Shown piece by piece: positions 37,826-38,729 of a stretch of DNA of 64,000 nucleotides. The stretch lies in the NCBI GenBank assembly GCA_934277945.1, contig CAKQWA010000006.1, positions 12,173 to 76,172 of the forward strand, in the 5' to 3' direction. The notes beneath the pieces are model-generated. The model ran no database searches and had not been told where the DNA came from. It was given only the letters and a program-made list of their open reading frames with translations. A program made the translations under genes and the position numbers. This stretch comes from an uncultured Alphaproteobacteria bacterium. GTDB lineage: Bacteria > Pseudomonadota > Alphaproteobacteria > CAAGCB01 > CAG-977. Positions within the stretch are counted from its first letter, which is position 1, and the number at the start of each line of letters is the position of its first letter.

Positions 37826-37859
37826 CCGTCACAACTCTTTAATAAAGATACCCTTTTGA

Positions 37860-38392
37860 CAGTTTTACAAAATACAATCACTGTCTCTTGAACAACAACA
37901 GGAATACGTTAATCTGATACAGAACGATTTCGGTTCCCTGACTCCCCAAAAAAGACTCAAAAACATAGAAGAAGACATCAAGCGCGCCGCAAAAGAGCAA
38001 TCTCTTGCCCTTTCGGTTCACGATGCAAATCACCGTTTAGTTATCACGGGATGCGCCGGAACGGGAAAAACGGTAACTTCTGAACAACATCTTGTTAAAA
38101 TCATCACCGAAATGCCTTTAAACGCCTTTAACGGCTTATGTTTGGATGTCTTTAAAAACTTCTCTTCCGGCATTCCGCAATACGATTGCTTAATCATTGA
38201 TGAAGCGCAGGATAGTTGGAATAACGAAAACGCCATTCGCTTTTATACCTTGCGGCGTTTTAAAGGGTTGGAAGCAAACGCTATTATCTATATAAAAGAA
38301 AACCCGAAAACGTCACCAAATGACGACTATGTCGCAATGTCACGCGCAAATATCCGGCTTGTTGTCCTGAAAAAACACGTTTTAAAGTGACG
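37860..38392 (+). pseudogene. 5'-truncated remnant of a UvrD/RecD-like (AAA_19 / UvrD_C_2) helicase gene inside an AT-rich island.
   Basis: Stop-to-stop frame 37860..38392 (stop codon TGA at 38390..38392) encodes ...VITGCAGTGKT (Walker A) ...LIIDEAQD (Walker B) ...FKGLEANAIIYI...YVAMSRANIRLVVL (helicase C-terminal motif). There is no ATG before codon 85 and the motifs are abnormally close together. Local GC is about 40% against about 60% in the flanks. Confidence 0.5.
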
Positions 38393-38729
38393 ATTTAACC
38401 GGCTCTTTCTTTATGCAAACAGTGCTGTCCCTTTCAATAAGAAGTTTCCGGCGCTGTCTGCGCGGCGGTTTGTAACGCTTACTTGCCGACCAAAGCCGCC
38501 TGCTGCGCGGCTCGGCGGTCGGACCGCTTTTCTTTTCAAATTGATTTTTCACGACTTTAATGCTATATGCGCGCAACTCTGTCCGTGCGAAGCCACTGTG
38601 AAAGAGTACGGCGATTTTTCGCAATTCGACGCGGCGAAATACATCGGGTAAGGCGCGTATCAAGCCGCTTTCCCCGTCAAAGCGATTGCCGTCAAGGCGG
38701 TTAAAGCGCCCGAATTTCTGAAAGCGTAA

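Follow-up and report, generated by a model that had tools for sequence, protein, structure and literature searches.

The convergent core genes nnr and pfp of the uncultured alphaproteobacterium considered here are separated by 904 bp (37826–38729 of the 64,000-nucleotide stretch analyzed, hereafter the window), and the question raised by this spacer is whether its AT-rich part is a short gene in use, a noncoding element or the debris of a foreign gene. The nnr gene (36386–37825, plus strand), for a bifunctional NAD(P)H-hydrate repair enzyme, matches Pfam YjeF_N and Carb_kinase (E = 1e-38 to 1e-44), and pfp (38730–40001, minus strand), which converges on the spacer, belongs to the phosphofructokinase family (Pfam PFK, E = 2e-49). 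These matches uphold the location that the initial annotation had assigned to a truncated UvrD/RecD-like helicase remnant.

The GC content over 37826–38390 is 40.7%, compared with 55.6% for the window overall. Among all 565-bp segments it is the lowest (z = −4.4 relative to the rest; the next lowest elsewhere is 44.6%), and the tetranucleotide distance from the window background is also at its maximum here, in agreement with the island of about 40% GC first described. No internal repeats or second copies of the island were found elsewhere within the 64-kb window. The plus strand is open from stop to stop for 176 codons (37860–38387, or to 38390 with the stop included), with a GC3 of 0.43 against 0.68 in the neighboring genes. 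Translation of this frame confirms a Walker A motif (GCAGTGKT, 38049–38072), a Walker B motif (LIIDEAQD, 38190–38213) and a helicase C-terminal motif (YVAMSRANIRLVVL, 38328–38369). The earliest in-frame ATG, GTG or TTG codon in the window sequence is at 38112 and the start is not conserved among alleles, in line with the lack of a plausible start first noted.

General domain libraries (Pfam, NCBIfam and PHROGs) gave only sub-threshold P-loop and UvrD_C_2 matches to this relic. An identity as UvrD or RecD was considered and rejected: in Pfam the relic scores 15.5 bits against UvrD-helicase (cutoff 23) and 20.2 bits against UvrD_C_2 (cutoff 27.4), and in NCBIfam it scores 13–15 bits against recD/RecD2 (cutoffs 310–500). 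Its top PADLOC match is RTasNERD-Hel (PDLC03813, E = 7e-9), with GajB and 'NERD+UvrD' next in rank. When 5.8 billion clustered proteins were searched by word index, a single cluster came up, from the same species, with a 118-residue protein 93% identical to the relic. An exhaustive HMMER search gave 247 matches, nearly all of the best 150 being 500–700 residues in length; other than two same-species fragments, the best matches are 545–630 residues long and ~33–35% identical to the relic. These full-length relatives combine an N-terminal NERD domain (PF08378; present in all of P0003–P0007) with AAA_19/UvrD_C_2 and match RTasNERD-Hel end to end (E = 1e-33 to 1e-55), with scores far above those for GajB or Nhi. 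The helicase assignment of the initial annotation is thus retained at the level of superfamily 1 (SF1), with a NERD and SF1-helicase family taking the place of UvrD/RecD as parent. The search for full-length relatives that it proposed yielded these NERD-helicases at ~34% identity, but none in plasmids or phages.

A family profile of 572 positions was built from 117 full-length HMMER matches and detects the frame as a NERD-helicase pseudogene (37860–38390, plus strand; whole-frame E = 5e-42). The match falls into three plus-strand pieces that share one frame: linker and Walker A (37866–38105, profile positions 177–257), Walker B (38142–38216, positions 323–345) and the C-terminal motif (38214–38387, positions 498–565, 63 bits). 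The profile has no match in the other five frames of 37700–38800. Likewise, in the HMMER alignments relic residues ~5–113 correspond to residues ~175–285 of the relatives and residues ~115–170 to ~500–560. The motifs are compressed, as first noted, through the deletion of profile positions 258–322 (about 65) and 346–497 (152). Positions 1–176, comprising the NERD domain and linker, are also missing; they have no counterpart in the six frames of 37700–38800, and the relic gives no Pfam NERD match. GCAGTGKT and LIIDEAQD align with invariant columns of the family, the UvrD_C_2-like motif (FKGLE ... YVa.SRA) is present and an internal deletion junction joins DEAQDS directly to WNNENAIRF. The helicase core has lost motifs Ia and III–V together with the greater part of domain 2A (its second RecA-like domain). 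No helicase activity is possible in an SF1 protein without these elements, and the relic is therefore unable to act as a helicase. We consider it very likely that the frame is what remains of a horizontally acquired and now nonfunctional gene for a NERD-nuclease/SF1-helicase protein of ~570 residues.

The relic shares its linker/Walker A region, Walker B and C-terminal motif with RTasNERD-Hel and with the PADLOC candidate 'NERD+UvrD' (C3a187), but unlike a working RTasNERD-Hel it has no NERD domain, motifs Ia/III–V, start codon or reverse transcriptase partner, lacks most of domain 2A and is only ~34% identical. UvrD/Rep/PcrA and RecD belong to the same SF1 superfamily and have Walker A, Walker B and a UvrD_C_2-like motif in common with it, whereas the NERD domain borne by its true relatives is absent from UvrD and RecD. 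Similarity to the defense helicases GajB of Gabija (E = 5e-6) and Nhi (E = 3e-3) is weak and local, in the P-loop and C-terminal regions; the matches span just 40–60 residues and there is no GajA/OLD nuclease partner. A sequence search of the PDB with P0003 returned only spurious matches to designed PPR proteins. The RTasNERD-Hel model derives from NERD-helicase cluster 485, which is found beside some UG34 reverse transcriptases; the family does not depend on this context, which is seen in seven of the 17 UG34 members (Mestre et al., 2022; PMC9226505). No reverse transcriptase or defense partner was found near the relic, the neighbors being nnr, pfp, Nudix, prfC and ribosomal protein genes, and the rest of the insert described below has no further match to the family. 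An origin in a defense island, one of the sources originally suggested, is plausible only through this family association; the other suggested sources, a plasmid or phage, gained no relative. Plasmids and phages gave no match to the relic by tblastn or to the full 904 bp by blastn, and the family alignment found no relative among IMG/VR viral contigs. The closest full-length relative, P0003, lies on contig L082 between a gene fragment for a helicase with an MrfA Zn-binding (MZB) domain (2–913) and a tyrosine recombinase gene (3301–4200); this circumstantial setting hints weakly at a mobile or defense-island context for the family.

The comparison with related strains that had been proposed succeeded in finding the site without the insert, but not in finding an intact or larger insert. 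Two structural alleles of the same species, with nnr 98.3% identical, are free of it. L083 (13 contigs) has nnr, a 232-bp spacer and pfp, with no helicase relic. L087/L088 (four contigs) has nnr, a terminator, a five-gene cluster of 5.5 kb (an aldo-keto-reductase/Fer4 gene, larB, larC, larE and a gene for a 429-residue 4Fe-4S protein) and then the gene for a 162-residue protein, with neither pfp nor insert. In the sister species L068 (nnr and pfp 90 and 96% identical at the amino-acid level), nnr and pfp are separated by a 94-bp spacer and the insert is again absent.

The junctions were placed by blastn against L088. Positions 37701–37818 of the window match L088 11265–11382 (95.8%), and 38459–38491 match L088 11376–11407 (88% over 33 nt, E = 4e-5), which comprises the last codons, the stop and the following bases of a functional nnr. 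The heptamer TGCGCGG (L088 11376–11382) flanks the insert on both sides, because both matches include it; the repeat is imperfect, with TGCACGG on the left (37812–37818) and TGCGCGG on the right (38459–38465) differing by one mismatch. The foreign insert (37819–38458, plus strand) thus begins after 37818, measures 640 bp and has a GC content of ~41%. A right boundary at ~38650–38678 was considered and was replaced by 38458 on the L088 comparison. Beyond it lies the displaced native 3′ end of nnr (38459–38491, plus strand), which is collinear with L068 as well, with codons reading LRGGL and the old stop TAA at 38473–38475. The last seven nucleotides of nnr in the window (a gat taa, 37819–37825) come from the insert, so that the protein ends in HGD where insert-free alleles end in GGL; the nnr gene of this strain has a chimeric 3′ end. 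The insert has pushed the old stop, the terminator and the DNA beyond them downstream by 640 bp.

From 38459 to 38729 the spacer is native and of normal composition (51–54% GC), so that most of the ~330 bp that the initial annotation described next to the island (38400–38729) does not belong to it. Positions 38504–38573 (plus strand) are 90% identical over 71 nt to L088 11551–11620, between nnr and the aldo-keto-reductase gene; blastn and a terminator scan identify in them the terminator-like hairpin of nnr (38514–38528, with a T run to 38538) and, beyond it, the upstream/promoter region of the lost AKR-larB-larC-larE-Fer4 operon. Positions 38565–38729 (plus strand) preserve, in decayed form, the final 54 codons of the lost 4Fe-4S protein gene (65% identity to the intact 429-residue L088 protein by tblastn, E = 1e-19; 82% over 148 nt by blastn, E = 8e-39). 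Four cluster cysteines are altered in it, two to Tyr, one to Phe and one to an in-frame TAA (38649–38651). Its stop abuts that of pfp, TAA being followed directly by TCA, and since the stops abut, the 4Fe-4S gene and pfp were once convergent without a spacer. L083 and L068 retain different, shorter relics of the same gene. As the relics of L083, L068 and the window differ, the lar/Fer4 cluster was deleted independently with different breakpoints. A spacer between convergent core genes can evidently house several unrelated relics, here a foreign helicase, an old nnr end, an orphan promoter region and the tail of a ferredoxin gene.

The 93-residue ORF noted for this region does exist (38382–38663, minus strand), but it runs antisense to the relics and is spurious. 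It has no homolog and no family match, is never called in same-species contigs and has no coding signature, with no third-position excess of variation and a GC3 of 0.55 against 0.68 in host genes; it is best ignored in annotation. A longer minus-strand frame of 115 codons that continues past the TGA of pfp (from 38732 down to 38382), as if by read-through, was likewise rejected, being antisense to the relics and without homolog or family.

As to how the insert came to be 640 bp long, a larger mobile or defense element carrying a NERD-helicase gene probably inserted at TGCGCGG, after which deletions would have stripped away all else, the left deletion ending at the point where nnr would suffer; the locus would then be a clean, small case of foreign DNA trimmed to the edge of an essential neighbor. 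The arrangement resembles integrative islands that target the 3′ ends of genes (attL/attR) in that sequence of foreign composition has entered a conserved gene at its 3′ end, replacing the end of the gene and pushing the native end downstream, with a short direct repeat at the junctions. It differs from them in having no integrase, a repeat of just 7 bp with a mismatch and only 640 bp left. An att-like duplication of ~48 bp of the nnr 3′ end, considered from the L068 comparison, was rejected since the similarity of the 40 nt preceding the core is no better than chance; L088 supports duplication only from the 7-bp core rightwards. We can only infer a larger island with later deletion, because there is no integrase, inverted repeat or longer att-like duplication in or around 37819–38458. 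That the interval is prone to deletion follows from the three different lar/Fer4 relics in close relatives. The deletions could also be older than the transfer, as no donor above ~34% identity (the value for P0003) was found in the searches.

The most serious alternative, which we regard as possible but unlikely, is that the 640-bp fragment was degraded before it arrived and was joined into a break at the nnr 3′ end in one step by microhomology-mediated illegitimate recombination, with no larger island at any time. The bare 7-bp imperfect repeat, with neither integrase nor inverted repeats nor a significant longer duplication, fits such a capture; helicase homology begins ~45 nt or less from the left junction, and none of more than 100 contigs has a larger insert. 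The donor, however, would already have had to hold a multiply deleted and still open frame, and the three lar/Fer4 relics attest to large deletions in this interval, which makes trimming in place plausible.

Since the scan found no terminator between the nnr stop and the relic, the relic should be transcribed with nnr; to judge from the sequence, it is probably carried as a long, untranslated 3′ tail of the nnr transcript up to the old terminator at 38514–38538. Such read-through would also suit a role for the AT-rich block as a retained noncoding element, whether a 3′-UTR regulator of nnr, a small RNA or a curved-DNA spacer. We hold this to be very unlikely: Rfam gave no match (with a relaxed E-value for the region; at the gathering score, the window gave one distant tRNA-Gly), and strains tolerate indels of 2–122 bp inside the block and the absence of the whole insert. 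The adjacent 38391–38729, which represents the native spacer and not the AT-rich block, folds no more stably than shuffled sequences on either strand (z = +0.7 and −0.35).

The fate of the relic within the species was followed in contigs from Logan, ENA and NCBI, which carry the same relic at the same site, one of them matching the window at 98.5% identity across 12 kb. A DNA alignment of the relic comprises 16 same-species alleles. At 37965–37967 the window has ATA where other alleles have ATG. Individual alleles carry a 2-bp deletion at 38285–38286 (L001-3), a 20-bp tandem duplication after 38291 (L076/77), a nonsense change of TGG to TAG at 38218 (L078), a 122-bp deletion (37867–37988) with a 1-bp insertion (L079/80) and a loss of 10 bp between short repeats (38114–38123; L081). 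At least five independent frame-breaking lesions thus segregate, most of them found in several independent samples. The products that gene callers predict from the relic vary accordingly, at 69, 70, 72, 84, 92, 116, 118, 141 and 143 residues. Counted over 15 listed cluster members and P0002, the 92-residue form, to which the window belongs and in which the start is lost or a lesion lies upstream, occurs in about 65 contigs, the 141–143-residue 'ATG' forms in 17 (~1/6 of those listed) and other truncated forms in about 18. The majority haplotype, which is that of the window, has a relic without a start codon. The ATG is not an ancestral start, because the family-homologous open frame extends upstream of it and the relatives have Ile, Val or Ser at the corresponding position (~214 of the ancestral protein). 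Among the alleles there are about ten nonsynonymous and seven synonymous substitutions, giving a rough dN/dS of ~0.4 on numbers too few to test. This 10:7 ratio is compatible with neutrality, with no significant departure from it and no proof of it.

We read these alleles as a relic that is drifting neutrally and decaying, and not as a short protein family. The initial annotation's account of a decayed, horizontally acquired gene is thus upheld. It had named as a contrary outcome a naturally short AAA/UvrD_C protein with a start conserved in relatives; instead, the close matches are same-species alleles in which neither start nor frame is conserved. The matches shorter than 300 residues among the best 150 of 247 are two same-species fragments (72 and 118 residues), an unrelated 107-residue fragment and a 251-residue protein.

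A point against decay is that the frame is open over 176 codons despite at least two internal deletions, an outcome with a chance of roughly 1/9 for two random deletions. Together with intact Walker A, Walker B and C-terminal motifs, the 141–143-residue ORFs of some strains and a rough dN/dS below 1, it could speak for a small functional P-loop protein domesticated from the helicase, as either the 141-residue ATG allele or the 92-residue ORF from 38112. Such a protein is very improbable indeed. The ATG is missing in the window and most contigs, the frame-breaking lesions are segregating, neither ATG is preceded by a Shine-Dalgarno sequence and the ATG is internal to the family-homologous frame; motifs that a helicase needs have been lost along with the bulk of domain 2A, and outside the species just the 107- and 251-residue proteins are shorter than 300 residues among the best 150 of 247 matches. 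A native gene decayed in place, for which one could cite the fixation of the remnant in the common structural allele of the species, is almost certainly wrong given the deviant GC (40.7 against 55.6%) and GC3 (0.43 against 0.68) and the fact that in insert-free strains of this and the sister species nnr runs directly into the post-insert sequence, the insert interrupting its 3′ end. It would be a long shot to suppose both that the nnr 3′ end and the interval from nnr to the 162-residue-protein gene are a dedicated recombination or integration hotspot in this gut alphaproteobacterial lineage and that some strains keep the open, thrice-deleted Walker A/B fragment and express it as a mini-ATPase, for instance a decoy or regulator descended from a defense helicase.

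The decayed NERD-helicase gene is an ordinary pseudogene of a known family, distant in sequence, and an ordinary outcome of horizontal transfer and deletion. It has little importance beyond annotation, where the frame should be marked as a pseudogene in place of the hypothetical proteins of 69–143 residues that gene callers inconsistently report.

Several further features of the locus were observed. The interval from nnr to the 162-residue-protein gene (37826–40072) has at least three structural alleles in one species and a fourth in the sister species. Because pfp and the nickel-pincer cofactor (lar) genes are present in some of these alleles and absent from others, both are strain-variable, a point of possible modest interest to population genomic work on this uncultured gut lineage. 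Downstream of pfp, 40072–42249 (minus strand) encodes proteins of 162 and 561 residues (the latter 536 in related contigs) that, although conserved in both this species and the sister species, match no Pfam family at E ≤ 1e-3. Synteny based on pfp in GTDB genomes (L004–L067) did not help with the locus, the neighbors of pfp being different, and a search of JGI metagenome contigs with nnr gave no relative. L069 (nnr 65% identical) keeps the prfC-TPR-Nudix-nnr block, but the gene 3′ of nnr (5559–6578) is different: it overlaps the nnr end by 8 bp, is not pfp and belongs to no Pfam family. Since L069 has a different gene after nnr, synteny across the wider lineage breaks at the nnr 3′ end.

Five window substitutions in the relic are clustered within 40 bp (37950, 37963, 37967, 37975 and 37989) and include the ATA/ATG difference. 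At the first four the window is unlike all 13 other DNA alleles covering them, and at 37989 it is unlike all 15; the protein alleles P0157 and P0164 are recombinant at this fifth site. The cluster suggests a small recombination patch or clustered mutation. In L083, positions 5530–5624 hold a 31-codon ORF (MKTLRFIRNFLAVVMAGLAVAPPEAHKFLKA) in which the first 21 and last ~11 codons of the 4Fe-4S gene are joined in frame; it is the relic of a separate deletion and resembles a small signal-peptide ORF. The longest nnr ORF of the window encodes 479 residues from the ATG at 36386; all related contigs call the start 17 codons later (462–463 residues, MEILTAAQ...), and the true start is probably at 36437.
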